From contig NC_059430.1 of assembly GCF_021028975.2 (NCBI RefSeq), positions 56,606,001 to 56,670,000 of the forward strand: a DNA stretch of 64,000 nt, written 5' to 3'. Source of the stretch: Sphaerodactylus townsendi (lineage: Eukaryota). The translations under genes and the position numbers were made by a program. Positions 18,800 through 55,172 of this stretch are shown here, in pieces. A model generated the notes under the pieces. The model had not been told where the DNA came from. It did not search any database and saw nothing but the letters and a program-made list of their open reading frames with translations. Within the stretch, counting starts at the first letter, position 1; every line of letters starts with the position of its first letter.

Positions 18800-19162
18800 C
18801 TATAGTGTTTTCCTTACTATGCATGGGTGTTAAAGCTGGAAATGTTAAATGGATGTTTTAGCTGGAAAGTAAATAAAGCAGACAGGAAGAAAATTGATTC
18901 ACTTGAAATGTGATGTTGGAAGGGAATTGTATAGAAACCACGGACTGCCGAAAAGATAAATAAGTGGGCTCTAGGTCAAATCAAACCTGAATTCTCCCTA
19001 GAAGCTAAAATGGCTAAACTGCGGTGATTGACTAAACATGAGATGATTGATTCAATGAAGGAAGCTATGGCCTTTTGTTACAAGACTAATTTGGGCTGTA
19101 AGTGATAGGATATTTTGAAGATCATTAATTCTTAGGGTCATTTATAAGTCAGAAGTGACGAT
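18800..19162 (+). mobile_element. RTE-BovB LINE 3' fragment, degenerate
   Basis: Encodes remnants of KADRKKIDSLEM*CW and QIKPEFSLEAKMAKLR; ends gggtca..tataagtcagaagtgac. Confidence 0.75.
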
Positions 19163-19447
19163 ACCTCTGCATTGGGATGGTATTATGTGCATGTGCCATA
19201 TCTCTATACTTTTAAAAATGTATTAAGACCCAAATATATGGGGAGGAAATGAGTTGAGGTTCTACTAATAACATCACAGTCAATAATTTACACATCCATC
19301 TTCCTAGTATGTTGAACAGATTGTACATGGTGCACATATTATTGCTGGGCATGATTATATAAGGAAAAAGTGTTCTAAAAAGCAACATTGTTGGAATACT
19401 AGAAAATGTAACATTTACACGACAAATGAATAATTGTGTATAAAGAC

Positions 19448-19735
19448 CATAAGATGAGACTTGCTGGATCAGACCAGTGGTCCATCTAGGCCAGCACTGT
19501 ATTTCACACAGGAACTACCCAGTTGCCCTGAAGGCCAAAAAACGGAACAGAGGCCAAGGCCTTCCCCTAGTGGTGCTTTGTATAACTGGTATTCAGATGT
19601 TTGCTGTCTCTGAACATGGAAGTTTCCTTCAGTCACTATAGCTAGTAGTCACTTATGGACCTATCCTCCATGATTCTGTCTGATATCCTTGTTCAGCTAA
19701 CTATGTTTGTGGCCATTGTATGTCCTGGTACTTAA
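19448..19735 (-). mobile_element. CR1-related 3' fragment
   Basis: cataaga...gctggatcagaccagtggtccatctag resembles the CR1 tail at 9505-9550. Confidence 0.65.
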
Positions 19736-20928
19736 TTCCATGATTTAGGTCAAAGGATTTTTGTGGATCCAAGGCTGCAGTTTTAGGGAGGAGGGCAGAA
19801 TTGCCTTCCCCCCCCCTCCTCTGCTGGAAGTGGAAATGTAACAAAACAAGTTTTCCTTTTGTTAAGAGAAGACAATGATAATTTTTGCCCATCTCTCTCT
19901 TTACTTCAGCCACCTATGCCCCGTTGTATTTTGTCCATGAACTTCCAGTGTACTCAGCAATGGCTTTTAGGGTTTCTTAGGGGAAGAGAAGATGAGATCT
20001 GCCTCTACAAGCTTATGGTTTCTTATTATTCTTGGGATCCAAGCCTAAGGTTTTTATGTGTCACATTTACTTTTGGTAACTCCTGTTTGTTTTCCGTAGG
20101 ACCTCAGGAATTACAACTATGGAACCTTACATCTTATGGGTAGTACTGTTAAATACTTCCATCCACCATCCAGTTTGTCTTTTGCTGCTCAGCTAAAGCT
20201 TCACTGCTCTGCCATTGCTATATCGTATGGTAGTTCAGGGTTGGATTACCAGGTTCTGCCACTGAGTGCTGCTAAATAATGAAGAGGAGTCTTGCATACC
20301 TCCAGGGTATGGGGTAGTCTTGAGGTATTGCCAGCTCAACTCTGCTGAGTTGATGTAACATCAAGTATGTGTGTGAAGTTACTACTGTGCAGGCACTACT
20401 TTCTTAGCAGCTATGTACATGAATGGTGCTGAAAGGAGCCATTCTCCATTGAAGCGATGGAAGTCTGCGATGGAACATACCGGTATGCTACCAGGAGGCG
20501 GGATCTTCTTAAAGAGTAACGTTGACCCCTCGTCCGGGTTAAGATCCCCAGTTGACTTCCTGCCTCTACAGGAGAGCAAGGCTTTTAGCAGAGCTCCTCT
20601 TTTTTCTTCAAGAGCTCTCGGTTTTAGCTTCCCTTATTCTTCTATCCTACTGTGCGTTCGTTTCCTCCCTTCCTCCTTCCCCAGCTGAAACTGAGTACGA
20701 GGAGGGCTTCTAGCGGCGTTAAGCGGAAGCTAATCACCCCCCTCCGTCGAGGGCTTCAAGCAGCTCTTCAGCATAGCCGGTTTTGGCGCAGACCTGCGGC
20801 GTGACGATCAACCAGCGGCGAAACGCACTGGCCAGGCCGGTACAGGCAGCCAGCTTTTCCTGGCAGTAAATCTCAGCTCTCACAAGAGCTGATTCACAGA
20901 GATTTTCATCAACTGGTAGGCGGCAACT

Positions 20929-22492
20929 ATGGCCGAATGACGATTTCCCTGAAAGGGAAAACCTTGCCGCTGGCGAGGTCACCGGGCTTCTGCAGCCCAG
21001 AGCTTCCTCCCTCCAGTCTGAGACCGGCAGGAATGCTCGTCAACAGAAGCAGCTAAAGTCAACCATCTGCTGTCAAATCCGGGTATCGTCGGCGGACCAG
21101 CAACTGGCGGGCACGAGTCCCAAAGCGTGGGGGCCCCTGCTACCTCCCAGAAGTAAAGCGACAAGAGCCTTAAGCGCCGAGACTGAACTGCGACAAAGCC
21201 TGAACCACGGCAGAAGTAATTGTGCCCCAGGGGTGTTGATGTTGGGCAATAAGCTCGGTTCTTTCAGGAGGAGCCAGGTCAACCTTTCAGACAACCCAAG
21301 CGCGTAGGCTCTATTTACTGTCCCCTGCAGTTGCTAACTTGCTTATACAACTTGGCTCCAACATCAGGAACTCAGTACATGCTCCCAGCTGCCGGCTGGG
21401 TCAGTTTCAGCCCCTCCTAACACAGGAATCAGAGGAAGCGAAGCAGGCATTGAGTGAGGGGGGTGTGTAGAAGAGAAGAGGAAAAAAAGGATTCTCTCTG
21501 ACACGAAGACAATAGATGGGGCAGTGAGCAAGCCTAGGTTTTCCAGAGTTAAGAAGACCTTCATTCCTGATCTCTAGAACCATCTCTGCCCTAGACACTC
21601 AAGATTCTGCAGAAACGAAGAGGTTCCCAATCCTCAACAACTCAAACTTATCCAAAGAGCGGGCCAAAGGGGAAATCAGTTATTTCCATCAGGATGGAGC
21701 GGACAAGTCGTGCTTTCCATTCAGGGCTTACGAAGAATTGGAAAAGTGGCAAAATCCACATCCAGCAAAAACCCACCTCCTTGCTTCAGGAAACTCTCGC
21801 TCTCCTACTTCGTTCAAATCCTGCAGGTCCCCTGGTAGGCGCCTGTCAGCGTCTATCAATCGGCTAACCCTGGTTTCAGAGATGGAGGCGGATCCATTAA
21901 AGATACTCAGACAGGAGGCAGATGTGCACCTCAAAGGGCGTACCCGAGTGCTTAGCCATATCCCATGAAGGCACTTCTCCCATCGCTTCACAGTGGCCAG
22001 GAGCACTCCTGGCTGGCTCCAGAATCTCAGAACTCCTTCCACCAGAGCACAGAGCCATTAAAGAAGGGATTGATAGGGTTAAATAAGGCCTCCTTCTAAG
22101 CGGACTCCACCTAGATGCCCTGGCGATGGCGGCCAGATCAATGGCCCTAAAATTAAGCCAGGCGAACCATCTGGCTGCGCTCCTGGAAAGCGGGCCTTTT
22201 TCAAAGTGGCGATCACCGGCTTCACTTCCAGGAGAGAAACTTTTTTGGCAGAACTGACCAAATCCTAGTCAAAGACAAAAGACGAAAATTACTCCAGCCG
22301 TCCGACAGGACAGCTCTTCGGCACAGAGTTCAGCAGTTCCTTTAGATTCTTTAGTTCCTTCGTTCCTTCGGGCGGAGACGAATAGATCAACTGGCAACAG
22401 CAATATCACTCCAGTGGGCCTTCTAGAAGGGATCGCTTTTCGACCTTTAAAACTACGATTCACCAGGTCGGATCGAGACCAACAGACAATGA
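20929..22492 (+). pseudogene. DIRS ORF1 (gag-like), unit 1, frameshifted as assembled
   Basis: ATG at 20929 corresponds to 26274 of unit 2; fragments EKWQNP, SEMEADPLK, ADVHLK; TGA at 22490-22492 overlaps the pol start. Confidence 0.65.
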
Positions 22493-24285
22493 CTGCACTC
22501 GACAGTGGGGAGGCTGCTCCATTTCAACCAACAATGGGACCTGGCACCTGCGATGCTTGGGCAGAGAGGTGGATTCGCCAGGCTACAATAAGTGCCACTT
22601 CCCAAAACATGATTCTTCCCATCCCCACTGAGCCCCAATTCAGAAAAAGAGACACAGAACGAGCCATACACCGCCTACTTTCCATGCAAGCAATCGAACA
22701 TGTACCTGCACAACACAAACGCCTGCGAGTCTACTCCCCACTTTCACCGTCGAAAAATCAGGGGGACTGGAGGGCAATCCTCAACCTCAATAAAATGAAC
22801 CAACACGCAAAATTAGCAAATTCAAGATGGAACCTCGCACCATCAGCATCCATCAGGAAGAGAATTCCTAACCTCACTCGACCTCCACAGGAGGAGCCTA
22901 CCTCCCGTCCCCATCCGCAAAGACGCGAAAGGATTCCTCAGCAGCGGTGGAGGCAAGACACTTTCAATTCCAAGGCACCCGGGACTTTATCTGTACTTGA
23001 GTTTTCTCAAAATCATGCCCCCCACACGCAATCACCCCATTGGCGAGGAATACCGTCCACCCTTACTTGGGCGACATTCTAATTCGATCAAACCAAATCC
23101 ACTGCGCCGCCAAGAGCGTCAAAGCGAGTAACCCAAACGCTAACAATTAGGTTTCCTAATAAACAAGTCAAAAAAGTTCCTCCACCCACAGGATGGAACA
23201 CCTAGGGTGCCAATTGTGGACCTGAGTTAAAATTCCTTTTCCTCCCCACAGACAAAGTGCTTTAAAATCCAGAAGAAGTTTCTCGAGCTCATCTCCAGCA
23301 TGCGACAAATGTCCCTAATGCACCTGTCGAGCATACTAGGTCGAGATGATGGCGGAAAGCATGATCGGTCCAATGAAGAATGCATCTTGAGACCACCATA
23401 AGCCTTTCGCCAGTATCAATGGGACATCACCCACAAGCGGGATCAACAAATAGCGTAATCCCATTTCTCATTTGAAAAACCAATCTCAGATTGGACCGGA
23501 TTCTCACAACTTTCCCAGGGGAAGATGCACACAGATCGAAGGAGCGGATCAGATCTTCACAGATGCCGACCTGACCGTGGGGAGCCATAAGGGTCCCACA
23601 TGGTCCAGGACACTGGTCACAGTCTCAAGCTCTTCATCAATCTGCTTATAGAGACATACGGTCTCACTAGCTCTCATCCATTTCAGGACCAGATAATTGC
23701 ACCAGCGCGTATTAATCAAAACAGACAATATAATGGGGCCTACATAAATCATCAGGGAGATTCAGATCGCGACTCCTACAGAAAGAGGCGACAAGATCAT
23801 GAACTGGGCGAGTCCAGCCTCTCATCTGTAAACAGAACATCAAGTTAATTAGACATCACGGCCGATTGAAACCAGCCGACAGACCTGGACAATGCAGAGT
23901 GGACTCGCCTCCGGTCTTCCAGCAACTAATAGACCCTTCCCAGCCCAAAGATGAGGCCTCACGCATCTCAAGAACAATTCCAACTTCGCCGGTTCGTAAT
24001 GCCGCTTCGCTTCTGCAAGACAGCCATATGCGCGCTCCACGGCCCCCTGGCCTCCAGAGACACTTTATGCATTCCCACATTCCCCTCATCCCAAAACTAC
24101 TCAGGCGCCTGTTCAGGAACAGGCAGCAGCCGAATCTAATAGCCCCATACTGGCCCGCAGACCCTGGTTCTCCATGCTAAGACGGTGGGGAACCAATTCC
24201 ATACCGTCCAGGCGGACCTTCTCATTCAAGGGACGGTATGGCACCCGGACTGAGCATTACACTGGCGCCTGGCTATTGAGAGGGA
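22489..24285 (+). pseudogene. DIRS pol (RT, RNase H, Dam-like methyltransferase), unit 1, frameshifted
   Basis: GDWRAILNLNKMNQH, HPYLGDILIRS (YLDD site), IFTDA, AYINHQG, IPLIPKLL..LIAPYWP. Confidence 0.85.
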
Positions 24286-25320
24286 ACAGGGTTAAGAGAA
24301 GAAAGGCATTTCGGCTCAGGTCATACAGACCATTCTAAAACTCCTGAAGCATTAGATCACTTCAGAATTTATGACTATACATAGAGAAAGTGTTGATGTG
24401 ATGGGCCTCCATTAGACATTTGGTCCCCAAAAAAGCCTTAACTGGCACACATCCTAGAATTCCTCCAGGGTGGGGTGACAGAGGGTCTCAAGCCTCAACC
24501 CTCCGTGAACGAACTGGCAGCCTTTCAGCGGTCCTGACCCAAAATCCAGGGCCGCATGCGTTTCGGATTCACCCCCAGACGCCTCACGGTTCCACAAAAA
24601 GGGGTTTCCCAAACACAATCTCCAAAATTCACAGGTTTCCCTCTGGAACCTACATGCAGTGTTGAAACCTCGCTAGATAAGCCCATTTTGAACCAATCGG
24701 ATCAATTCGCCTCCGTTGGTTGAGGATGAAACACCACCATTCCTTGTGGCCTTGAGCATCAGCCAGGGAGAGTCTCAGAACTCCAGATCCTCAATATCCC
24801 TGACTGTTGCACAATTCATCGGACGGGGTCGCCTAAGATCGAACCCTTCCTTCCAGCCCAAAGCGCATCAACTTTCATTTGAAACAAGAAATAAGGTATG
24901 CGGTATTCTACCCAAAACCTTCAGCTAACAGGAAAAGTTGTGGCACAAATTAGGCGTGCGCCAGGTCCTTAAAGCGTTCCTGGTACTTGCAGAGGACATC
25001 AGGGAAATCAACAGCCATATTTATCCGTGGCCCATCCCTGGGCTGGAGCAGATGTCGGGTGCTGCTATAAAGCAGCAGCCATCCGCGCCACCATCTCCGA
25101 AGGCCTCATCCCCACTAAACTGTCAGTACCAGCGAGATTACAGCCCATTCTGTCGGCCTGGCTGCCAATGCGGCTGTTAGGCAGCGAATCAGTTGAGGAT
25201 ATTTGTGGCTGACCATCTGGTCATCCTCATCTTCACATTAGTTAGGCATTATAAGTTGGTTCGCCCCAGTCCGCAGTTCAGACTGCCTTGATGCAGATTC
25301 TGGATCTGAATTAGAAGAAG
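24280..25320 (+). pseudogene. DIRS tyrosine recombinase, unit 1, frameshifted
   Basis: PFEPI.SI.LRWLRMK, PSFQPK, WHKLGVRQVLKAFL, SVEDIC, aggcattataag (RHYK, catalytic Tyr) at ~25244-25255. Confidence 0.8.
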
Positions 25321-26273
25321 CCGAACTACCGCCAGGGAGCAGGAACCTTGCGGCGTTGTAGGTCCCATCGCGGAACTTCCGTCTGCGGTCGGCTATTGGT
25401 TCACTCACGGTAGAAGGCGCTTTCTCCGGTTAGAGGTAGGAAGTCAACCTCCGCCGACGGTTTCCATCAAATCCTGAATTGATTAGTCAGTTACCCCTCA
25501 AATGTTAGTGGGTTAGTTATCCCCAATGTTAGTGGAGTTAGTTTAAAAGAGTTAAGATTGTTTTGCGGAGTGTATGCGTTTGTTTAAGACTTCTACGTGG
25601 TCAGTTAGCAACTGGGGATCTTAACCGGACGAGGGTCCTTGGAAGCAATTCTTTAAAGAAGATCCTGCCTCCTGGTAGCAGACAACAGGAGGAACCGCCA
25701 TGAGACTTCAGTTAGCCTAACGGAGAAAAGGCTCTTAACTGTTGCGGTGGTAGACAATAGCCATTCTCCGATGAAGCGTGGGAAGTCTCGATGGGTTCTC
25801 CTGTTGTCTGCTACCAGGAGGCAGGATCTTCTTAAAAAATTGCTTCCCGTTGACCCCTCGTCCGGTTAAGATCCCCAGTTGACTTGCTTCCTGCCTCTAC
25901 AGGAGAGCAAGACTTTTAGCAGAGCTCCTCTTTTTTTTCTTCAAGAGCTCTCGGTTTAGCTTCCCTTATTCTTCTATCCTGCAATGGATTCGTTTCCCTC
26001 CTTCCCTCCCTTCCCAGCTGAAACTAATTACGAGGAGGGCTTCCTGGCGCGGCGTTGGCGAGGCTATTATTGCCCCTCCGTCGAGGGCTGAAGCGGCGCC
26101 TCTTCAAAGCCGCCCGGTTTGGCAGCAGACCTGCGGCAGCGCCCGGCGATCCAGCCAGCAGCTTTTTTGGCGAAACGCAGCCATTTGAGCGGCGGCTTTT
26201 TTTCCTGCGTAAATCTCCAGCTCTCACAGAGAGCTGATTCTGAAGATTTTCATCAGCCTAGCGGGCGGCAACT

Positions 26274-27890
26274 ATGGCGGACGGCCGGTTTTCCCCTGAA
26301 AGGGAAACCTTTACCCGCACAGCGGCGGAGTCCACCCGGGCTTCTGCAGCCAGAGCTTCCTCCACTCAGTCTGAGACCGGCAGGAATGCTCCGTCAACAG
26401 GCGCAGCCGCTAAGTCCAGCCGTCTGCTGTCCAAATCCGGGCGCTCTAAATCGGCGGACCAACAGCCCCAAGCATGAGGGCACAGTCCCCAAAGCGGCGT
26501 GGGGCCCCTGCCCCTCCCAGAGCGTGGCTGACAAGGAAGCATAAGCACATCGAGACTGCGACAAAGCATACAGACCCGCGGCAAGTAATTATTGCCCCAG
26601 GGGAGTGTTGATGTTGGGCAACCAAACTCGGTTCCTTTCAGGAGGAGACCAGGTCAACCTTTCAGACAACCCAAACGCATGGGCTCTGGCTACTCCCCTG
26701 CAATTTGCTAACTTGCTTATACAACAGCTCCAACATCAGGGCACTCCGGTACATGCTCCCCAACTGCCCGGCTGGGTCAGTTCAGCCCACTCTAACACAG
26801 GAATCAGAGGAAGCCCGAAGCAGGCATTAGTGGGGAGTGTGTAGAAGAAGGAAGGATTCTCTGACACAGAGACGGCCAGATCGAACCCGGTGGAAGGCAA
26901 ACCCCTAGGTTTTTCAGGTTAGAAGACCTTCCATTCCTGATCTCTAGAACCATCTCTGCCCTAGACCTCAAGATTCTGCCAGAAGCAGAAGAGGTTCCCA
27001 CAATCCTCAACAACTCAAACTATCAAAGGGCGGACCAAGGAAATCAGGATTATTTCCATCAGGATGGAGCAGGACAAATTAAGTAACCCACATTCAGAGG
27101 CTTTGAAGAGAATTGGGAAAGAGTGGCAAAATCCACATCCAGCAAAACCACCTCCTTAGCTAGAAACTCGGCTCTCCCTGCTACGTTCACAAATCCTGCA
27201 GGTCCCTACAATTTAGGCAGCACCTGTCGTCTATCCAGTGTAGCCTAGTTTCCAGAGATGAGCCGGATCCATTAAGATACTCAAGACAGGAAGGCAGATG
27301 TGCACCTCAAAGAGACTGCGAGGTGTAGCCATATCCATGAAGGCGCTACCATCGCTACAGTGGCCAGGGCACTCCTGGCCTGGCTCAAAAGATCTCAGAA
27401 CTCCTTCCACCAGAGCACCAGAGCCATTAAAGAAGGGATTGATAGGGTTGAAATAGGGCCTCCTTCTAGCGGACTCCACCCTGGATGCCCTAGCGATGGC
27501 AGCCAGATCAATGTGTCGTGCAACCAGGCAGACCATCTGGCTCGCTCACCAGAGCGGGCCTTTTCTAAGGCAGCCGTCACCGGCTACCACTTCAGGAGAA
27601 AACTTTTTGGCCCAGAACTTGACGGAAATCCTAGTCAAAGACAAAGACGAAAATTACTCCCACGCTTAGATCCGACGGGACAGCTCTCTTCCAACAGGGG
27701 TTCCAGCGGTTCCTTTAGATTCTTTTCGTTCCTTCGTTTCCTTCCACCGAGATGAGGAGACAGGAATAGATCCAACTGGCAACAACAATATCACTCCAGT
27801 GGGCCTTCTAGAAGGGGGGATCCTTTGGAGCCTTTTAAAGGAGAGGCGACCCGGTTATTCACCAGGTCGGATAAGACCAACAGACAATGA
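26274..27890 (+). pseudogene. DIRS ORF1 (gag-like), unit 2
   Basis: MADGRFSPERETFTRTAAESTRASAARASS..., LATPLQFANLLIQQLQ, VARALLAWLK...AIKEGIDRVEI, GYHFRRKLFGPELD; TGA at 27888-27890. Confidence 0.7.
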
Positions 27891-29695
27891 CTGCACTCAC
27901 ATTCCAGTGGGGAGGCTGCTCCATTCAGCCAACAATGGGACCTGGCACCTGCAGATGCTTGGGCCAGAGAGGTAGTTCACTTAGGCTACACTAGAATTCT
28001 TACACTTTAAAGCTGTCGATTCTTCCCATTACTGGAAGGCCCAATTCAGAAAGAGACATACAAGAACTTTGGGCGCCATACACCTACTTTCCATACAAGC
28101 AATCGAACATGTACAACACAAACACCACGAGGGTCTACTCCCACTTTTCACCGTCGAAAAATCAGGGGACTGGAGGGCAATCCTCAACCTCAATCATTGA
28201 ACCAACACATAAGGGTGCGCCAAAATTCAAGATGGAACCTTTCGCACCATCCGGCATCCATCAGGAAGGAGAATTCCCTAACCTCCTCGACCTCTGAGCC
28301 TACCTCCGTCCCCATCCACCAGACACAGAAAATTCCTCCGGCAGCGTGGAGCAAGGAATTTTCAATTCAAGGCTTTGCCGTTGAACTGCATCTGCACCCG
28401 GTTTTCAAAATCCTATTGCCCCATAATCACTACGTCAACAGGAATACCGTCCACCCTTACTTGGGCTGACATTCTAGTCGATCAAAACCAAATCCACTGC
28501 GCTTTCGCCAGGCGTCAACGGTAACCCGAAACACTTCAACAATTCGGTTTCCTAATAAACAAGTCAAAAGTTCCTCACACCCACACACAGGATGGGTACC
28601 TAGGTGTAATTGTGGACCTGGGTTAAATTCCCCTTTCCTCCGAACCAAAGGTGCTAAAAATCCAGAAAGAAGTTTCTCAGCTCATCTCCAGCAAACAAAT
28701 GTCCCTAATGCACCTATCGAGGCATACTAGGTCAGATGATAAGCGACCATCGATCGCGGTCAATGGTAGAATGCATGCGAGACCACTGCAAGCCTTTCTC
28801 CGTAGTATCAATGGGACATCACCCACAAGCGGGATCAACAAATAGTAATCCCATTCTCATTGAAAACCAATCTCAGATGGTGGACCAGTTCTCACAACCT
28901 TTCCCAGGGGAAGGTCTACCTGGTCGGGAGCGGATCAAAGATCTTCACAGATGCCAGCCTGACCGGCTGGGGAGCCACCCACAGGGTCCCACATGGTCCA
29001 AGGACACTGGTCTACAGTCTCAGAAGCTCTTCACATCAATCTGCTAGAGACAACGATTCTCTAGCTCTCATCCATTTCAAAGGACCAGATGGTGCACCAG
29101 CGCATTATCAAAACAGACAATATAGCTCGCGAGGGCCTACATAAATCATCAGGGGAGGGTCCAGATCGGCGACTCCTACGAAGGAGGCCGACAAGATCAT
29201 GGTGGGCCGAGTCCAGCCTCATCTATACAAGCAGAACACATCAAGGGTCAATTGAACATCACGGCGATTGGGCTCAGCCGACAGACTACAGGACAATGCA
29301 GAGTGGACTCTTCTCCCGGAGGTCTTCCAACAACTAATGAGCCGCTACCTTAAAGATAGACCTCTTTGCATCTCCAGAACAATTCCCCAACTTCAGCCAG
29401 TTCATGTCATGGCTGCCTGCCAAGACAGCCATAGCAATATAACGCACTCCGGCCCCCTGGCCTCCAGAGACACTTTATGCATTCCACCCATTCCCCTCAT
29501 CCCAAAACTACTCAGAAACCTGTTCCAGGAACAGGCAACATTGATCTATTAGCCCCATACTGGCCATGAACCTGGTTCTCCACAATACTAGAACTAGCAG
29601 TGGGGAACCAATTCCTGTTGAGCGGACCTTCTCATTCAGGGACGGTATGGCACCGGACCAGACAGGCTACCTAGCAAAAGCCTGGCTATTGAGAG
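27887..29695 (+). pseudogene. DIRS pol (RT/RNase H/MT), unit 2
   Basis: PKFKME, HPYLG, LRWW, KIFTDASLTGWGATH, IIKTDN, WWAESSL, AEWTLLPEVFQQL, PPIPLIPKLLRNL. Confidence 0.88.
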
Positions 29696-30730
29696 AGGGA
29701 CGGGGTTAAGAAGAAAAGGCGCTACTTTCGGCTCAGGTCATACAGACCATTCTAAACTCTAGGCATTAGATCCACTTCCAGAATTTATGACTATACATGG
29801 AAAGTGTTAAATGCGATGGGCCTCCATTGAACGAGTGAATCCCCAAAAGCCTTAACTGGCACACATCTAGAATTCCTCAGGGTGGGGTGACAGAGGGGTC
29901 TCAGAGCCTCAACCCTCCGTGAACAACTGGCAGCCCTTTCAGCGGTCTGGCCCAAAATCCAGAACCACGGCGTTCCAGTTCACCCAGACATCCTACGGTT
30001 CTAAAGGGGTTTCCCAAACACAATCTCCAAATTCACAGGTTTCCCTCCTGGAACCTACATACAGTGTTATTGGCTCCTCACTAGATAAGCCCTTTGAACC
30101 AATCCGGTCAATTCACCTCCGTTGGTTGAGGATGAAACTTCTATTCCTTGTGTATAACATCAATGGGAGAGTCTCAGAGACTCAGATCCTCAATACTCCT
30201 GACTGTTGCACAATTCATCAGGACAGGGTCACCCCTAAGATCAGACCCTTCCTTCAGCCCAAAGCATCAACTTTCATTTGAAGCAAAATAGTGCTCGATT
30301 ATTCTACCCCAAACCAGCCCCAATGACGAGGAAAAGTTGTGAAAACAAATTAGGCGATCTTGCGGGTCCTTAAAAGCGTTCTGAATGCGCTGAAAGAGGG
30401 ACATCAGGAAATCCAACAGCCTATTTATCCAGCGTGGCCCATCCTAGGCTGGGAACAGATGTCGGGTGCTGCGCTATAAAACTTAGCATGCATCCCAGCA
30501 CCTGCATCTCCGAGGCCCTCGCCTCCGCCCCAATATCCCGAGTACCAGCGGGAGTAAAGCTGGCATTCTGTCCATTTCTTTGCTGCTACCAATCGCGGCT
30601 GTTAGGCGAATCAGTTGAGGATATTTGTAGGCTGACCATCTGGTCATCCTCATCTACATTAAGTTAGAGCATTATAAGTTGGATTCTTGGTCCGCCAGTT
30701 CAACGCCGGTATAAGATTCTGGATCTGGTT
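29690..30730 (+). pseudogene. DIRS tyrosine recombinase, unit 2
   Basis: DKPFEPIRSIHLRWLRMKLLFLV...RVSE, PFLQPK, SVEDICRLTIWSSSSTL followed by cattataag (HYK). Confidence 0.85.
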
Positions 30731-33700
30731 AGAGGAAACTGAACTTCCCACCCAGGGAGCAGGGACGCGGCGGCGTTGTAGGTCCCATCGCAGACTTCCG
30801 TTACGAATGTCGGCTATTCGGTTCACTCCCGTGAAGAGCCTTTCTGCCTCGGTTGGCGTTAGGAAGTCTCAACAGAACAGTTTTCCATCAAATCCTGAGT
30901 ATTAAGATCAGCGGATTACCCCTCAAATGTTAGTGGAGTTCAGTTATCCCCAATGTTAGTGGGTTAGTTTAAAGGTTAAGATTGTTTTCTTGAGTTAATG
31001 CGTTTGTTTTAAGACTTCGTGGTCCAGTTCGCAACTGGGGATCTTAACCCGGACGAGGGGTCAACGGGAAGCAATTCTTTTAAGAAGATCCTGCCTCCTG
31101 GTAGCAGACAACAGGAGAACCCATCGCAGACTTCCCACGCCTAACCGGAGAAAGGCTCTTCACGGTGAGTGAACCAATAGCCGATCTTAGTCCCTCTGGT
31201 GCTGCTTCTTGACATACTCTAGGAGGAGCACACAATCTCTCTTCTCTATTCATTGGTGTCTGGGAATAGAAGCTATTAGTCTACCACTGACAATGAGTTC
31301 TGTTGCCAGTGTTTGGATTTTTTCCAAAATGTTCTTAATTTCCCCTGGAATATTATTAATGCTGGACTGAGCATCAGTTGACCATGAGCATCATTAGGCA
31401 GCCCTGGGGCTGAATATTAAGTCCTGGCCCTCCTCAGATGACTACTGCATTAGCAGCTTTTCTATATAGAAACAGTAGAACAATGTGAGATAAAAATAAA
31501 TGTCATGTATTCTGTACAACCAGCTGTCTTGTGAGTAGCTAACCTTTGTTTGACCAGCTAGAAAAGCCTATAGAACAATAATATATGTGAAGAACAAAGC
31601 TATTTTGGGTTATTTATTTTTGGCTTCAAAGTACATACTGAACTTTCCTTGTAATGATCTACACACTTTAAAAACATGATTCAAATGAATCATGTCAACA
31701 TCAAGTTATTCATTCTGACAGCACAAGCTTTGTTTGCATTTTGATGCACTTAAGCACATAACTAAATTTTTTCTGTTGATGTTAAAAAAATCTATCTGCA
31801 GTCTTTCACTCTTTCAACTTTTGGAGTATTTGTGAAATTTATCTAGAGTTATATGTTTGTCAGTCCCACTGAAATGAATAGGACTACAGCACCCCTAGGG
31901 GAGTGCAGGATACTTCTGGGCCAGTGAAATGATGTTTAAGTTACGTACTGATCATATTTTTCCACTATTGTAGAAATAATATTACAAACTAGGATAAGAT
32001 GTAATTAAATGTAATGTTTCTATTTAAGCAATGGTGTGTACTTTGTTTTTGAATCTATTTTTTAAACAAAAATATACATGGAAAGACCAAACTCTGTATC
32101 ATCTTTGAGACTAACTAATCTTTATAATAGTTTCTAAGCTTTCACAGCAAAGCCTCTTTTTTCAGGTGACAGAAATTGAATTAAAATGTATGAGGTATTG
32201 AACTTAATCTCCAAATTTGCCACTAAACCAAGCTTTTAATTAACCATAATGTACTGTGTGTGCAGTTAACCTAAAGTATGCTATTTGTATAATTTAAAAA
32301 AGAGATTAGTATCCTTTACAAAGCATTTTCTGGTTCTGCCTACGAAAGCTCAAAATATAAGGGCTTGTGTCCTGCCTCGAATTTCTGCACATGCAAGGGT
32401 GTGCATGATTTGCTCCTAGCTCCCCTTCTTGTAGAAGTCCAAAATGCCCACCCAAAGAGTTGCTCCTGGGGATCCTCAGGAATAAATTGAGGAATCAGAG
32501 TTCTCCTCTGAAGAAAGGGAAATTCACGAAAATTGACTCATCCTTATGGTTGCAGAAATTCTACATAGGAACCAAGCCAAGTAGTTGAATATATAAGAAA
32601 ATGTTCACAGAACTCTGATAGTTTTGTGAGGCTATAAAAAACCCACCAAAAAAAAAAGAGCATTAAAAATTAAAAACAACGTAAGGAGAGAGAATCATGC
32701 TAAAATGTTTTGACTGGTTTGAGTTTGTTTTGTCCCCGAGCAACCCCATCCAAAGGCCGGGTGCCCAGATACTACTCCACAATTGCTCCACCTCGGCATT
32801 CCCATTGGGGCTTTCTGGTGGTATGGAGAGGCAAAAACAATAAAAAGACTCCTTTGGGCTTAATGGACTTACACCATCAACAAAGTGGTATATGTCCAAA
32901 ACCCTCTCTAAGGCAACAGCTGGGGAAGCCAACTAGTGTCAGCTCTTTCCCCACCACACTTCTGGACCACTCCTGCTTTGCCAGTGAAGGTTCAGGAATG
33001 CTGATATGGTGCTCAACACCACATTCCACCACTGTGGAGGGCTGCAATGGCCACCTTCTGGTGAATGCCCTCGGGAGGGCATATCCTCTGACGCAGCCCC
33101 ATGCTGCTCTTTGAATGAGGCTGTAATTCTTTCTAATGTTGTCAATAAAACAGCCTAGGCTTTTGTCACCCGACTCACATGGGTTCTTGAGAGTAAGTGA
33201 GCATCCAGCAGGCCAAATAATTTTTTAAAAAAATTATATAAAAATAGAAGAAAATGTAAAAATCAACATGAAAAGTCCTTCAGCAGGTATAATAACATCT
33301 GCATAAATAGCAGAAGATTAGCTGAAACATAAGACAGGATAAAATATGCAAATATTAGCATAGTCCTTAAATCTATTTGGTGTTGGCCTCAGTTTCTTCC
33401 AGCAAGCATAGGTTGAGGAAAAGATATAGCATTTCCAGTAGGCTCAGAATAAATTAGAATGGCATAGTCACTCTAGCTCCATAGTAAGTTTTTTATAACA
33501 ATTCATCAACCACGGTCGGGTGAATTCAAACCAATTAGAGCTAAATTTGAGTGGAACTTTTCAAAGCCAAGCTTCTGGTCATACTCACATGTCAGCCAAT
33601 TAATGACTTGGGCCAGCCTGGCTCAGATAATCACAACACCCCTTTAATGTTTTGAGGGTTTGAGACCAGTAGCTAATACTTCCTGCTCATTCTCATAATA

Positions 33701-35856: not shown

Positions 35857-38800
35857 CTGTATATACTCGCATATAAGTTGGTGCTGCTTTTATTTTTGTG
35901 CTGAAAAGCTCCCCTCGACTTATCTTTTGTAAGTGAGGTGTATTTTAAAACATCTTAGGGTTTTGCTTTGTTGTACCAGGGAGAGAACTAGTTAGGCTAG
36001 CTTAGCATAAAATTTCTTAGGGTACCATCAGGTGACACTCCCGATGATGCCAGCTACGTTTAGTGATGTTTGGTTTAGAAAGGATCAAAAGTTATGGACC
36101 ACTCAAAGGGGTCCCCAATCCCCATTGACAATAGGGGAACCAAATAGTCAGAACAGGCTTCCTTTTGAGGGTCCATAACTTTGGACCCCCCTGAACCAAA
36201 CTTCACCAAACCTGGGTGATATCATCAGGATAATCTCTTGCGGAGGCCAGCCAGGTTTGGTGATGTTTGGTTCAGGGGATCCAAAGTTATATGGATCCTC
36301 AAAGTGGAATGCTCCCATCCCCCATTGTTTTCCAATGAGGCTAGCCGTGAAGATGGGAATTACCCTTTTGAGGGTCCATAACTTTGGAGCCCCTGAACCA
36401 AACTTCACCAAACCTGGGTGGTATCATCAGGAGGGTCTCCTAAAGATACTCTGAAATGTTTTTCTTTGGCTAACATTCCTCCTGACAAGACACCACTCAA
36501 GTGCAGATTCTCCCTTTAAATCACCCCCCCTTCTGAGTGGATTGAAAGGGAGAATCAGGGCTTACAGAGCTAGTTTACTGTTTTTATTTATTTAATTTAT
36601 TTATTTATTGAATTTGGTATACCGCCCTATCCCCGAAGGGCTCAGAGTGATGGTGAACTATAAAATCCTATGTAAAGCATAATACCAAATAGTTTGATTT
36701 ACTAAAACAGTAGCCCCACGGAGTCCATATACAACCCTCCCCAACAGAAAAAAAGAATAGGATTCCCAATGAGTGTAAGGAGTCCTGTAACAGAGAGGGC
36801 TATTTATGGCAGGGTGAGGTGGTGGTGGAGAGCACTGTCAGCTGACTGTGGTCACTCCAAAGACCCGATTGGAACAATTAGGTCTTACAGGCCCTCTTGA
36901 AATTCTCCAAGGTCCCACAGGGCCCGGACAGCTGGTGGCAGAGTGTTCCACCAGGCCGGCGCCATAGCCGTAAAGGTCCTGGCCCGAGTGGAGGCCAGCC
37001 GTGTCATTGAGGGGCCGGGGATCTCCAGTAAATTTGCCTCTGCAGAACGCAGAGGTCGAACCGGGACATTTGGGGTAATGCGGTCCCGAAGGTACGAGGG
37101 TCCCAGGCCGCATAAGGCCTTAAAGGTCAGCACCCACACCTTGAACACGATCCGGAATTCAACTGGCAGCCAGTGCAGGCGGCGCAACACAGGGCGGATA
37201 TGTTCTCTAAAGGCGCCCCCTGTGAGCAATCGGGCCGCATGCTGGACCAGTTTCAGTTTCCGGATCAGGCGCAAGGGAAGGCCCGCGTAGAGTGAGTTAC
37301 AATAGTCTAGCCTGGAGGTGACCGTTGCATGGATCACAGTGGCTAGTTCAGTGAGAATTGGAGAGAAGGGTGGCAGGCTGAACTGTACGAGATAGAGATG
37401 GAAAAAAGCATAACCGGGTTATATGGGCCACCTGGATCTCCATTGAAAGAGGCGAATCCCAGGTGGACCCCCCCAGGCTTGGGGCCGGAGGGAGGTCACG
37501 GCGCCAATGTGACCCCCCCCTCCCACGGGACGGTTGGGAAATCCCCAATCCCTCCTCCCTGACCAAGGCTAGGGATCTCCGTCTTCTTAGATGGATTGAG
37601 TTTTAACCTGCTTTCTGTTGCTTAACCAACTAATGGCCTTCAAAACAGAGTGCTGCTTGAGAGCTACAGGGGAAGTGACAGCTCCCCCTCCATCAACAGA
37701 ATGAGCTGTGTGTCATCAGCATACTGATGGCAAATCAGCCCAAGCTCCGTACCCAGCTGAGCAAGGAGTTACATATAGATGTTAAATAATAGTGGGGACA
37801 AGCAATGCCCCTGAGGGCACCACCTGCATAATAAGCGGGCACCTCCAGGAAGCTTTGTCCCCACACCACTGCTGCTGGCTCAGCCCTTGGAGAAACGAGG
37901 CAATCCATTGAAGGACGGTGCCCCGGACCCCTGAGGCGTGCCAGAGCAGTGGATCCAAAAGGTCGTAATGGTCGACCACATCAAGCGCTGCGGTGAGATC
38001 TAACAACGCCAACAGCGCCGATCCATGCCTCGGTCTAGCTGCATCACGGAGCGATATCTGTGACAGCGATGAGAACTGTCGCCGTCCAGGGCTGGAAGGG
38101 GTCAGATGCTGATGTGTCATCCAGAAAAGCCTGAGAAGCACCGCTCCAACGCACCACGCTCTCGTTACCTTCCCCAGAAGCGAAAGGTGAGAGATGGGGC
38201 TTGTAATTATTGAGATCTCAGGATCTAAGGATGGTCTTTTCAAGAGTGGAAGCGGGACCACTGCCTCCTTCAACCCATCTGGAAGAGACTCCTTTGCTCC
38301 CAAAGGGAGTCATTGATGATCTTCAACAAGATGGGGTCATTAATTCCTCCCATGCGATTTAATCAGCCAGGAAGGAACTGCGGATCCCAGAAGGGACAAG
38401 TAGTAGGTCTAGCGACGTAGGAGGCCCCTGTCAACAACAGCGGCTTCAGAGAGCAGGGAAAACTAGACAAACAGGGGCCAGAGAAAGAAGGCAAAGGAGC
38501 CTCCAGTTATTAATTGTAGTTAAGTTGGCAGGAAGGTCACCTGGCGGGCCGACTTTATCACCGCAAAAGAAGCTCGCATAAATGCCTCACAGCTGTAGGC
38601 AATTCATGATTTACAGTAGAACCCTCTGATGGCGAGAGTCAAAGGTCGAGATTATCGAAAATAATTGTCACCGGTGAGAGCTGGCAGATCACGAGACGAA
38701 GGAGAAGCTTCCTCGCCAGCGCTCGCTTCATTAAGCATGCATCTCATAGGCTTTCATAAACGTCCTATAGGATGTTCGCGCCGCTTCATCACGAGACTTC

Positions 38801-40331: not shown

Positions 40332-40489
40332 NNNNNNNNNNNNNNNNNNNNNNNNNNNNNNNNNNNNNNNNNNNNNNNNNNNNNNNNNNNNNNNNNNNNN
40401 NNNNNNNNNNNNNNNNNNNNNNNNNNNNNNNNNNNNNNNNNNNNNNNNNNNNNNNNNNNNNNNNNNNNNNNNNNNNNNNNNNNNNNNNN
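40332..40489. other. Assembly gap (158 N)
   Basis: Run of N. Confidence 1.
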
Positions 40490-45989: not shown

Positions 45990-48116
45990 ATAGTCCATGG
46001 TTATGAGAAGTTGTGGTGAGAGACAAAAAGCAGGCGCCGCACAACAAGAAGCAGCATCTGGCTGAACAGCCGGCAACAAGCACCAGCGACCCAAGACGCT
46101 CTTCGCCCCCCATCACAGGAGGAGACAAGGGAAGGGGGCCGGCAAGGTGTTAGCGACCCATATATGGCCATGGGACACCGAGAAGACTGTGGAGAGTCTT
46201 CAAGCTGCGCCAGCGACCCGGGCAGGGCTGCAACAGGCGCGAGCTCTTCTTCTGCCACTTCAGAGACCTCCGGTTCCAACACCACAGTCAGGCAATACTG
46301 GGCAGGGGGAAGCAGGAAAGAGAGGGCAGCTTCTGGTTCTCATTACCTGACCCTGAGTCTTGGCAGAATGCTTCCCCAAGGGAACTCATAGAGCTGCTTA
46401 GCCACACCATGAGAGAGGAGATTCACCTTTACCATGAGGGAAGGGAGTCCAGGCGTAGCCACAGGTCTCTTTCTTTTCCCAGATCCCATAGCCTGATACT
46501 GCCAGGGAGACTCATAGATCACCCAGTCCCCAACTCTCCAGGGAGGGCTGCAGACCAAGGGACCCCCTCTCCCTTCCAGGGAATCGTGACATCAGTGAGG
46601 GGGAGCTAGAAGACCTCTCTGATCATTTTTTCAGATCTGGAGGAAACCCCAACTGAAACAACAACAATAATAACAGTGGTAACAACAATTCCTTTCTCCT
46701 CTTGGAAAACCAGGGAAGAATTTCCAGACAGACAGACCCAACTGCTCCTGACTACCTGTCCATCCCGGTCGGCGGCCACCTAAAACACTATCAACATCTC
46801 TGGCAGGGCAGCCACGTCGACCAATGGACAAAAGAGGTCATCATGTCCAGATACCTCATAGAATTCTTCAAAATGCCAAAGCCATGCTTCCTGTCATTTC
46901 CCAGACATTCTCGACTGAACAAGGCACAAAGAACAGAAGTGGCAAATCAATTATCTCCTCAACATACATACAGTAGAGCCAGTCCCTGCATGGGAGAGGG
47001 CTTTAGGGGTGTCTCCAGCCGTGCCCAAGTGGAACTTCTTTACCGTGCCCAAGCGAAACGAAGATTGGAGTGCAATCCTGAACATACATTTCATCAACAG
47101 GCACATCAAGCTGCAAAAGTTCAGAATGGAAACCCTTCGGTCCATCACAGAGGCTCTACACCCAGGGGACTTCTTGACATCATTGAACCTGGCAGAAGCA
47201 TACCTGCATGTCCCAATCAACCTGATTCACAGGAGATTTCTATGTTTTGCAGTAGAAACCAACCATTACCAATTGAGGGCACTTTCCTTCGGCCTGGCAA
47301 CAGCGCCCAAGGTATTTTCCAGGATCCTGATAGCCCTCATCATTCTGCTGCGGGAACAGTGGATCCATGTGTACCCCTACCTAGATGACCTGCTCATCTG
47401 GTCTGCCTCCAGGGATCAGACCAGACAGGATGTGGAACGGGTCCATCAAATTCTGAGTCGACATGGGTTCCTGGTCAGCCTTCAGAAGAGCTGTCTAGTA
47501 CCCTCCAGAAGAGTGGAACATCTGGGTGCTCTCATTGATACATCCTGCAATTCTCTCTTTGTGCCAAGGGACAAGGTCCTCAACATTCAGTAGGCGATAA
47601 CAATGGTCCTTTCAGCCAAATCAGCGTCCCTTCTTCAGATGCCCAGTTTCATGGGCCTGTTTATTTCCATAATAGACATGGTCCAATGGGTTCGCCTGCA
47701 TGCAAGATCCCTGTAACAGTTTCTGAGACCCTTCCAGCTCCAAATTATGGAAAAGAAGGACCGAAAACTGCAAATTTGCAAATTAGACCTGATAAGCCCA
47801 TTACCTTCTTTAGTGAGAGTTAAACTGTTACCTTTAGTCATGACTGGAGCCTTTCCGTCTTGTTTCTGTTTTTTAAATTGTTCATGTTACGGTTTACCAT
47901 TCTTGTTATTTCCTGTTATTCTGTTACTGCAAAAGTTTTGTACTGCTTTGTCAGTGATTTATTGGAGGACAAGATGACTACCCAAGCCTACCATAGGAAG
48001 TGACAGAATCTGAGTTCCTGCCTCCCTGAGGAAGTGGTTGGGAAACCACCCAGCAAGATGTCCTCCTGCCTACCAGGAGAAGGACCCTTCTCGGTAAGTA
48101 ATCAGTGGACCGTTCT
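45990..48116 (+). mobile_element. DIRS retrotransposon remnant (family C): gag end, RT, large internal deletion, right terminus
   Basis: IPVGGHLKHYQHLW, DQWTKEVIM.RYLIEF, RT ORF; homology lost at ~47770; terminus caagatgtcctcctgcctaccaggagaaggacccttctcggtaagtaatcagtggaccgttct. Confidence 0.88.
47009..47593 (+). pseudogene. DIRS reverse transcriptase core fragment
   Basis: FFTVPKRNEDWSAILN, KFRMETLRSI, SLNLAEAYLHVPI, LSFGLATAPKVFSR, VYPYLDDLLI, KSCLVPSRRVEHLG; in-frame stop at 47591-47593. Confidence 0.92.
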
Positions 48117-53099: not shown

Positions 53100-55172
53100 T
53101 CTGAGTAAGACAGGCCCAGTTCACTGTCCAAAGGGAGAAGTTGAGGGTTGCGATGGGATGCTACCAGATATTCCTTTGGGATTATATGGCACAATGAATT
53201 GTTTTCCTCCCAGAGGATAAAAATACTCTTGCCAAGGTCCTGTTGTTGGCTGATGGTTCCACACTTGGAAAGCAGCAATCAAATGCCACCAGTCTTATGG
53301 CTGAAAGTGCCAGCAGAGTCATGGCTTATGGAGTGGTTTAAGGGGGCAGTCATGGTTGAGAGAACCTCCTGGCACCTGGGCCAGAGTGAAATACCTCCTT
53401 TTTGAGGGAAAAGCTCTATTTTGGTTAGGAAACTGGTACCACCTTTGACAGAATTAGGAAAAGTCTATTTACTGCAAAATCCCTAGGTATTATCTCCCCA
53501 AACATTGGGGATTTCAAGCAAAGGTACTTTCCTAAGGCCAGAAGCTTTCTACGAAGTTGTATCCCTATCAGCAGTTATTATTTAAATCCCCATCAATCCC
53601 CTGTAGATCATTTACATTTCAGACATTTTCTTTTCATTTTCTGGGGATATCTGGGTGGTACTGATCGACTTGAAGGATCTGTATTTTTATGTATCCATTC
53701 ACCAGTCTTGTAGAAAGTTTCTAAGGTTTCAGTGTGGGGATAATCTTTATGAATATAATGTTTTACCCTTTGGATTAGTGACAGCCCCACATATCTTTAC
53801 CAAATGTAGTGCCCATCTTATCATCAAAAGGTTGTGATATGTATTCTTTGAATCAAGCCTGGAACGTGATTTGGCTTTTGCCTCCCATACACTAACTAAC
53901 AGGTTTTTCATCCACACACAAGAAAGGATAGGTTCCATGTCTCTCTGGGCTGAGGTTTCCTGGTTGGGGCAATGGAGTATACCAAGCAACATTTCTCTGT
54001 CTGCCATCCATGTGATAGGAGAAAGCAACACCCCTGCTAATTTCCTTAGCAGACAGGTTTTGTCAAATCACCAGTGATCCATCAGTGCCCATAATTTACT
54101 TCCAGTTTTCAGGGAATAGAGATTCCCTTGTGGTGACCTGTTTGCTACCAAGAGCAAATGCAAAGTGTTCCAGGACAGGGACAGACAAGTGTTCCAGGAC
54201 AGGGACAGACAAGGAGTCATTGGGGGGATGCCTTAAAACTGGGTTGGTCATGTTGCCTCTGCTATGCCTTCCCTCCCTTCCTTCTGATGCACAAGGCCCT
54301 AGCAAAAATGACCTCAGATCAGTCAACAGGGATTGTCATTGCCCCCTATTGGCCAAAGACATTACACTGCCTGCATGTTTCCTGAATCTCCAGGCGAGCA
54401 ATCACTCCACACACTTGATGGCTGTTGGGCTCTCTATTTAATTTCAGTTGTACAAATTCATTTCCACAAGACAAGATTGTATTTATTTGCTTCATAGATC
54501 ATAACAAGGGCAAAGCTGCTGCTGCTCAGCCATTTCTAAATGAATGGTTTCTGCCAATAGATTGGCATGTAGCAGTGCTAAGGTAGATTGTCCACTTCAA
54601 GTTAAGGCTCATTCCACCAGGTCACAAACCAGGGGCAACCTCCACAGCAACTGGTGTGCTCCAGGTTTCTCTAGTATTATTCCATCAATGTGGATTTCAG
54701 GAAAGATGTAGCTGTTCTGAGAGTAGGTTTACAGTATTTCATTGACAAGTGAACACCTGCCTCCATGGTAAGTAAGTGTGCTACTTTTCCATGCAGGACC
54801 CCATTGAAGAAACAACACTGAAGATAAAGTTGCAATTAGCTGTAATTGTTGCTCATTGAGTGATTTCTGTGAAGGCATGCATCCCTCCCTCCTTTCCCTG
54901 AGGTTGCTGCCATTCTGCCTTCCTGGTACTCTTCCATGGTAGTGTAGAACTGAGGGAGGAGCACTCTCCCTGCCTCCATCATATGACCATTTGGACAGGA
55001 AACCAGCCCTCTCTCTGCTCCAAAAGGGAGGGGGAGAATGTTCCAAGCACTCTAAAGCCTTGGGAAGCCTTTTAGTCAGTTATTTGTGATTGGCCTGAAT
55101 CTGTGCAGTCCCTTTATTTGACTGCACAGACATTCAATGAATAATTACAGGTAAGTGTAACTTTGTTTTCTT
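53100..55172 (+). mobile_element. Old, multiply deleted DIRS retrotransposon (family D)
   Basis: Ordered remnants: gag (EGKALF), RT (IDLKDLYFYVSIH..RKFLRF..LPFGLVTAPHIFTK), RNase H (AIHVIGESNTPANFLSR), MT (YAFPP..VIAPYWP), YR (VKAHSTR at 54601). ICR ~54826-54870 complements the terminus 55120-55165. Confidence 0.85.

Follow-up and report, generated by a model that had tools for sequence, protein, structure and literature searches.

The window, a stretch of 64,000 nucleotides from Sphaerodactylus townsendi, contains two full-length DIRS1-type elements arranged head to tail. The DIRS1-type identity of the units and their exact abutment, right terminus to left terminus, were confirmed. In a self-BLAST comparison, positions 20437–25742 aligned colinearly with positions 25759–31166 at 78.6% identity (5684 columns, 360 gap opens). 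The units are 5322 bp (unit 1) and 5424 bp (unit 2) long, and the only run of N in the window, at 40332–40489, lies far from both. The features of the pair are collected in Table 1.

Table 1. Features of the two DIRS1-type units and of their joint.
Feature	Position	Strand	Remarks
Unit 1	20441..25762	+	Full-length DIRS1-type element; start ATT; noisier copy
Left inverted terminal repeat, unit 1	20442..20554	+	
Presumed gag-like ORF1 region, unit 1	20929..22500	+	Frameshifted; ATG at 20929, in a context that recurs at 26274; presumed from position only
pol (RT – RNase H – methyltransferase-like), unit 1	22508..24281	+	At least 46 frameshifts and 4 stops in 552 aligned codons; frameshift-aware profile alignment
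Putative tyrosine-recombinase region, unit 1	24290..25290	+	GRVSE 24768, HSV 25146, RHYKL 25247; colinear with unit 2 region
Internal complementary region (ICR1), unit 1	25364..25445	+	
Right inverted terminal repeat, unit 1	25609..25727	+	
Right extension, unit 1	25728..25762	+	Noisy; final letters CAATAGCC
Head-to-tail joint	25762..25763	+	CAATAGCC/ATTCTCC; 0 host bases, 0 N
Unit 2	25763..31186	+	Full-length DIRS1-type element; start ATT; final ATC = empty-site bases
Left inverted terminal repeat, unit 2	25764..25881	+	
pol, unit 2	27910..29694	+	At least 47 frameshifts and 3 stops in 554 aligned codons; frameshift-aware profile alignment
Putative tyrosine-recombinase region, unit 2	29700..30700	+	GRVSE 30167, HSV 30564, HYKL 30670
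Internal complementary region (ICR2), unit 2	30784..30868	+	Central AAT = complement of ATT start
Right inverted terminal repeat, unit 2	31032..31152	+	
Right extension, unit 2	31153..31183	+	Final letters CAATAGCCG; last 19 nt = exact ICR1 match
Target trinucleotide ATC	31184..31186	+	Directly 3′ of 20440 in empty allele; X5 contig

Organization of the units

All four copies of the inverted terminal repeat could be aligned, and the two copies of unit 2 showed 93.8% identity over 129 columns. PAT and Ngaro elements were rejected as a classification, because the termini are inverted and are not split direct repeats; apart from the whole unit itself, there is no direct repeat. The right half of the ICR is complementary to the right terminus with its extension over 50 of 61 and 52 of 64 columns, respectively (0 of 1000 shuffles as good in each case). 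In the left half, a 16-nt inner block matches the left terminus, and the outer part is 9–11 nt short in both copies, where the sequence is approximately 10% wrong. Shuffles were as good as the left half in 0 of 1000 trials for ICR2 and in 55 of 1000 for ICR1. The AAT trinucleotide is present in ICR2 and absent from the noisier ICR1. The start ATT, at 20441 and 25763, is of the NTT type that matches a 3-bp circular junction, and there is no target-site duplication; the empty site is ATC, which shares only AT with the start. The folding of the ICRs was no better than that of shuffled sequences (z = −0.6 and +0.7), and the joint region did fold (z = −2.9), as inverted repeats require. A 19-nt terminus motif gave two metagenome matches, otherwise unlike the window, which were dismissed as chance.

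A 59-residue fragment had 18 relatives in the representative library and none among longer proteins. One of the 18 was an unrelated repeat protein and was dropped from the pol profile. In a frameshift-aware alignment to this profile, anchored on P0028, both units aligned across positions 7–622. The relatives carry RVT_1, and their RT_RNaseH and Dam matches are mostly below the curated cut-offs. When 70 stop-free fragments (7 + 63) were scanned directly against Pfam, no significant match emerged, which we put down to the frameshifts. Approximately 1.6 kb precedes pol, and the ATG context there is conserved between the units. The region 3′ of pol is similar to the C-terminal portions of P0019 and P0010. 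The R, H-x-x and HY motifs of the putative recombinase lie in broken frames with no Pfam match; we take GRVSE, HSV and RHYKL/HYKL to be tyrosine-recombinase motifs.

The joint and the outer boundaries

Both sides of the joint were compared with the unit ends and the host flanks. The 42 nt to the left correspond to the right end of unit 2 (32 of 46 columns; 0 of 1000 shuffles as good) and do not match the host left flank (161 of 1000). Similarly, the 38 nt to the right match the left end of unit 1 (29 of 39 columns; 0 of 1000) and do not match the host right flank (490 of 1000). Since both sides match unit ends and not host flanks, the joint is free of host DNA. The shuffle tests and the self-BLAST bear out the original observation of two colinear units of ~5.3–5.4 kb with no host DNA between them. 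The similarity of the host flanks to the element ends, as a possible target feature, lacked significance, with 137 and 518 of 1000 shuffles as good.

The joint had also been expected to equal the sequence templated by the ICR. The order of the motifs agreed with this expectation; GAC and the length did not. The distance between AATAGCC and GGAAGT is 18 nt at the joint and 10 and 12 nt in the reverse-complemented ICRs, which are thus 6–8 nt shorter. The GAC that follows AATAGCC in both ICRs is absent at the joint, and the right end retains only G. Because both units are error-ridden, statements on individual bases of the joint are unsafe. A joint that lacks G/GAC would also result from a splice over the AGCC common to the host flank and the right end. 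The shortness of both ICRs relative to the joint that they are expected to template counts against the main reading given below.

The short-read evidence comprised six runs, all in the form of short contigs, with 15 of 134 contig joints listed. One contig from run X5 joins 20440 directly to 31184. By alignment geometry it reads ..GGAGCC/ATC/TTAG.., which agrees with the empty allele predicted earlier and fixes the outer boundaries independently. The filled left junction was found in two runs, where an X3 contig reaches 20472 and an X1 contig reaches 20473, and one X3 contig starts exactly at 31184. The exactly empty allele together with the filled left junctions indicates that the insertion is polymorphic, lacks a long target duplication and has the ends ATT...ATC. 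In run X6, labelled as another organism, the alignment stops at 20440, with 61 letters beyond. The host flank is accurate, with a 0.92 fraction of sampled words found in X3. Contig end-points near 20472 were rejected as evidence on the joint, since graph simplification makes them ambiguous. No piece in the six runs extends across the whole stretch. Among the matches listed, no contig or read spans 25762/25763 and none supports the presence of both units on one chromosome; among the 15 of 134 joints listed, none connects a right end to a left end. At least nine of these listed joints skip 5364–5554 bases, so that contigs hop between the units, and the contigs differ from the assembled left end at ~6 of 32 bases.

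Sequencing error and the identity of the units

The alignment of the units contains 771 gap columns versus 411 substitutions. A↔G exchanges outnumber C↔T exchanges, 152 versus 70 (p = 4e-8), and a control pair of old repeats showed a milder excess, 116 versus 82. Nanopore bias towards A/G-type errors is strand-specific (PMC8486125), and the A/G excess therefore fits both units having been read on one strand. Frameshifts occur at ~8.4 per 100 codons in both units (Table 1), as compared with 1 in 310 and 2 in 144 codons (0.3–1.4 per 100) in an old DIRS of the same window. Substitutions between the units fall on codon positions 1, 2 and 3 in 19, 15 and 19 cases (p = 0.36), with a third-position excess of 0.8 points (upper 95% bound 3.4). 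The predominance of indels over substitutions, the frameshift density, the A/G swaps and the lack of a third-codon excess make it very likely that the 79% identity reflects sequencing error. When compared with the abundant contigs of the family, both units share 22 of the 40 letters listed. Of the letters common to both units against family contigs, 8 of 10 fall on codon position 3 (Fisher p = 0.014). The two copies are likely near-identical, with long-read errors accounting for their apparent differences.

The two units differ in quality. Unit 1 has 270 gap opens versus 206 in unit 2 (p = 0.004), 19 and 18 private differences in the cores of its terminal repeats versus 1 and 0, and 21 polarised substitutions versus 11 (p = 0.11). 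This step in quality falls at the joint, where it would fit two different reads and so speaks against a pair. Errors begin no further than 32 bases into the element. An accurate flank followed by errors from the first bases of the element is the pattern that a gap filled from one bridging read would leave; PMC7476103 describes a gap closer that retains one candidate read for each gap. The whole block has the appearance of long-read sequence that was left unpolished, set between flanks that are accurate. A young repeat that enters an assembly as uncorrected reads mimics an old, diverged, dead element.

Origin of the pair and comparison with known systems

The exact termini at the joint, free of host bases and N, favor a real pair, and a tandem dimer is probably present at the locus. 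Our main reading, to which we assign a probability of about one half (0.52), is a polymorphic DIRS1-type insertion consisting of a real, near-identical pair, the joint of which arose when the recombinase placed a second circle into the end of the first copy. According to tyrosine-recombinase chemistry and the DIRS model, the circle junction (right end/ATT/left end) would recombine with the host ATC site, and each end of the inserted copy would keep half of that junction. Such an end may be a favored target for a further circle from the same burst, and the entry of the second circle would regenerate a circle-type junction in the middle of the pair. A dimeric circle formed before insertion would give the same product and is regarded as a lesser sub-route. 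The assembler likely took the 10.7 kb from uncorrected nanopore-type reads. In favor of this reading, DIRS-1 of Dictyostelium discoideum and zebrafish DIRS1 are reported to insert into existing copies (PMC7192593, PMC5941688); the ICR is required for transposition there, and the circle junction is the proposed integration substrate. Against it, PMC7192593 reports that DIRS cDNA is mostly linear and that the circle junction could not be amplified by inverse PCR; the junction is not known to have been recovered experimentally.

It is unlikely, with a chance well above negligible, that the chromosome carries a single copy and that the assembly set two uncorrected reads of it head to tail at a heterozygous insertion site. 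Both units are of raw-read quality and show no true divergence that could be detected, and the joint is absent from the short-read rows listed; however, two flank-anchored reads should have left host bases or a run of N in the middle of the block, and neither is present. The quality step at the joint suits such an assembly duplication but may reflect uneven polishing of a two-copy repeat. The missing G is what a splice over the common AGCC would leave, yet one absent base is unremarkable where only 32 of 46 columns match. In addition, the joint sits at termini fixed independently by the empty allele, and the A/G excess fits a single read direction.

A dimer formed after insertion is improbable. 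Here, the recombinase or unequal exchange would connect the right end of the copy carried by one sister chromatid with the left end of its counterpart on the other and yield a precisely empty chromatid without new cDNA. Identical units and a clean empty allele are predicted and both fit, and unequal crossover has been discussed as a multimer route for KolobokP (PMC9587614) and transposable element arrays. On the other hand, AT (plus AGCC) is all that the termini have in common, which is not enough for homologous exchange, so that an excision-type activity would be required that DIRS recombinases are not known to have, and the empty allele is more simply ancestral, given that X6 stops at 20440. 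Since a second circle, a dimeric circle and an exchange between sister termini give the same joint, a real dimer is no proof of a circular intermediate. The earlier description of the locus as a snapshot of the circle mechanism was thus overstated, considering the raw-read quality, the chance of an assembly duplication, the mismatch to the ICR and the equivalence of the three recombinase routes. In a variant of the earlier idea, a later copy joined an old, diverged resident; at face value, 21% of columns differ and unit 1 looks more decayed, but this reading is largely refuted and has very little probability left, as both units are missing from the empty allele, indels exceed substitutions, the third-position excess is absent, contigs hop between the units and mismatch the assembled left end, and the units share letters against the abundant contigs.

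A bolder and rather improbable extension of the main reading is that the joint of a real dimer represents the first directly readable DIRS1 right-end/left-end junction and differs from the ICR. The outer left terminus would then not be copied from the ICR, contrary to the 1985 model, and the recombinase would use resident ends as att-like sites for arrays, possibly regenerating precisely empty alleles. The element is of a known kind; the locus is useful and testable. Once verified, the joint would, with the empty allele, supply what crossover-mapping of a DIRS recombinase requires from a single recent event: junction, target and the two product ends. A verified joint would also show that DIRS1 is able to seed tandem arrays.

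Vertebrate DIRS1-like elements (AcDIRS1/2, XtDIRS2/3, TnDIRS1a; Table 3 in PMC3266345) resemble the units described here in their length of ~5.4 kb, in having a right extension beyond inverted termini, and in an ICR just inside the right repeat. They also share a pol (RT, RNase H, methyltransferase-like) that precedes the putative recombinase region, the NTT start complementary to the central trinucleotide of the ICR, a right-end trinucleotide different from the start, and the absence of a long target duplication. In contrast to them, two copies abut end to start here, no ORF is intact in the assembled sequence, and in both copies the left ICR half falls short of the length of the left terminus, a difference that is not certain in noisy sequence. 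A preference for existing copies as targets ('homing') would be a likeness to DIRS-1 and zebrafish DIRS1; in the passages of PMC7192593 and PMC5941688 considered here, exact end-to-start dimers are not described. No paper describing a DIRS tandem dimer was found in the literature searched, a weak absence as the main DIRS reviews by Goodwin and Poulter were outside that search. Head-to-tail copies at one site are known from Drosophila dimers (10.1101/158386), KolobokP multimers (PMC9587614) and clusters of TATE (PMC6681497), itself a tyrosine-recombinase retroelement that occurs in tandem, and have been tied to site preference or circular intermediates. Their joints contain a duplicated target, a direct repeat common to the copies or a telomeric repeat, whereas the joint here consists of nothing but the two termini of the element itself and one trinucleotide.

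Structure and divergence of the two units

Self-BLAST of the window returned a single long direct repeat (20437-25742 against 25759-31166; 78.6% identity over 5684 columns, 360 gap opens), which bears out the original observation of two colinear, abutting units. The order within each unit is left inverted repeat, ~1.6 kb presumed gag, pol, putative recombinase region, internal complementary region (ICR), right inverted repeat, and right extension. A profile built around the Xenopus protein P0028 aligns with the pol of both units from position 7 to 622. The region after pol is a putative recombinase, judged from its likeness to the C-terminal parts of two proteins (P0019 and P0010) and from motifs read across broken frames, the roles of which are assumed here. 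The element works like DIRS1: most of the features that define membership were found, and the recombinase region, gag, and the complementarity of the left ICR half to the left terminus are putative. A strong hairpin (20870-20895; z -4.3 for 20840-20960) immediately precedes the presumed start of gag, and unit 2 contains the matching stretch of sequence.

Features of the window, in window coordinates
Feature	Position	Remark
Unit 1	20441-25762	DIRS1-type
Unit 2	25763-31186	DIRS1-type
Joint sequence	25762/25763	CAATAGCC/ATTCTCC
Older third DIRS-like element	46765-47917 and 53622-54358	no nucleotide match to the unit pair
End of a very high-copy repeat with a ATAAGAAC-type tail	19443-19600	contig depth in tens of thousands; presumably CR1-like
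Repeats related to the preceding one	2.6-4.7, 12.1-12.7, 36.6-38.9 kb	self-BLAST
Nested inverted repeats	36009-36460	~450 bp; self-BLAST

In the older DIRS-like element, an open frame of 224 codons contains a reverse transcriptase (RT; RVT_1, E 3e-15), a methyltransferase-like part follows ~6 kb beyond it, and another RT-like piece lies at 53622-53813. The element may represent either one interrupted copy or two partial ones. Its named relatives include two lizards, which points to a squamate reptile as the probable host.

The 79% identity between the units very likely reflects sequencing error. In the unit-to-unit alignment, gap columns are more frequent than substitutions (771 vs 411), and A<->G swaps exceed C<->T swaps (152 vs 70); nanopore errors show a strand-specific pattern of this kind, according to passages of PMC8486125. 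In a control, two old repeats within the window, the skew is weaker (116 vs 82) and substitutions outnumber gaps. Each pol carries 46-47 frameshifts in ~550 codons, compared with 1 in 310 and 2 in 144 in the old DIRS copy at 46.8-54.4 kb. Across 969 phased columns, substitutions between the units were distributed over codon positions 1, 2, and 3 as 19, 15, and 19 (p=0.36); any excess at the third position is ~3 points at most. Although a third-position signal could be dampened by an overlapping second frame, it persists in a second control, where letters common to both units were compared with family contigs (position 3 in 8 of 10 cases, with one of 11 letters unphased; Fisher p=0.014). Among the best 40 of 774 letter differences, 22 were common to both units, 10 were single-unit errors in which the other unit agreed with the contigs, and 8 were unclear; these rows were picked by depth and so favour other sub-lineages. 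The contigs jump from unit to unit and fit each mostly with indels. Based on the difference pattern, codon positions, and contig behaviour, both units belong to one sub-lineage.

The joint and the ICR

The left side of the joint matches the right end of the element (32/46 columns) and its right side the left end (29/39 columns), with 0/1000 shuffles as good in either case. Neither side matched the host flank significantly (161/1000 and 490/1000 shuffles, respectively), and no N is present near the joint. The predicted identity of the joint with the ICR-templated junction held in part. The right ICR halves fit the right terminus (50/61 and 52/64 columns), but the match is looser than had been implied: GAC follows AATAGCC in both ICRs, whereas the joint has nothing there and the assembled right end G only, and the AATAGCC-to-GGAAGT spacing is 18 nt in the joint, compared with 10 nt in one ICR and 12 nt in the other. 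In both copies (25364-25445 and 30784-30868), the left ICR half lacks 9-11 nt relative to the left terminus. Since gap runs of at least 9 nt occur only once across the entire unit-to-unit alignment, the two concordant shortfalls may be genuine; systematic read error within a hairpin is a possible alternative. If real, the shortfall and the GAC bear on the DIRS replication model.

The host flank ends in AGCC/AT (20436-20443) and the element right end in AGCCG/AT (31179-31186); the similarity over 16 nt is not significant. The AGCC likeness could possibly represent a target preference.

Empty and filled alleles

The left flank was found in six runs from three studies, with up to 0.92 of sampled words recovered, and is therefore accurate. 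Contigs from four of the six runs were aligned to 19000-32600. The predicted empty allele was found: record 15 of short-read run X5 covers 19467-20440 and continues gapless at 31184-32600, with ATC at the site. Record 20 of X6, a run labelled as another organism, stops at 20440 with 61 letters more, beyond the rows listed, and is compatible with this allele. X3 record 9 and X1 record 4 contain the flank plus ~32 bases of the element; thus, the insertion is present in two studies. X3 record 13 starts exactly at 31184, which suggests that this sample carries both alleles. The assembly itself may derive from the X3 sample, in which case X3 is not independent. The empty (X5) and filled (X3, X1) contigs indicate a polymorphic insertion with an ATT start and ATC end, as for DIRS elements in Table 3 of PMC3266345. 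The middle joint was uncrossed among the contig rows listed (15 of 134 joints; 14819 further pieces lie beyond them), which neither supports nor refutes it.

Within 20441-20472, the totals of differing letters are 7 for the X3 contigs and 6 for the X1 contigs. The left end of unit 1 differs from that of unit 2 at 4 places, and 6-7 differences separate it from the inverted right repeat. The true left end may therefore form a more nearly perfect inverted repeat than is seen in unit 1 or unit 2.

Origin of the pair and related systems

A real dimer is favoured, with a probability of about 0.65, by the exact termini at the joint, the lack of host bases or N there, errors that start at the element edge, and one read direction. 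An assembly artefact is less likely. In its favour, there is more noise in unit 1 than in unit 2 (270 vs 206 gap opens; 19 and 18 private differences in the inverted-terminal-repeat cores vs 1 and 0), although uneven polishing could account for this; the G missing at the joint is expected from a splice over the shared AGCC, but the local error rate could also explain it. A published gap closer retains one bridging read per gap, as passages of PMC7476103 describe; its use in this assembly is only conjectural. The window contains a 158-N gap (40332-40489), so the assembly is scaffolded.

In the standing model, as outlined in parts of PMC7192593 and PMC3266345, the ICR restores both ends, and recombination takes place between the circle junction and a trinucleotide target. 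Sections of the former state that DIRS-1 requires the ICR, yet its cDNA is mostly linear and the circle junction was not amplified. Since each end of an integrated copy would keep one half of the junction, entry of a second circle at either end would restore the full junction in the middle. This route would fit DIRS insertion into existing copies (reported in parts of PMC7192593 and PMC5941688) and transposon dimers that arise in bursts via double insertion (parts of 10.1101/158386). Insertion of a dimeric circle or exchange between sister termini yields identical letters, and sequence cannot tell the three routes apart. The locus is therefore consistent with the circle model without being the proof of it that a snapshot of the mechanism would imply.

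The literature searched, the main DIRS reviews being outside its coverage, yielded no account of an exact DIRS1 dimer. The sequence is too noisy to decide the one claim that would be new. The element is of known kind, its insertion is recent, and the end-to-start arrangement is what recombinase chemistry predicts. Related arrangements are the tandem clusters of TATE and the multimers of KolobokP, as described in parts of PMC6681497 and PMC9587614, respectively.
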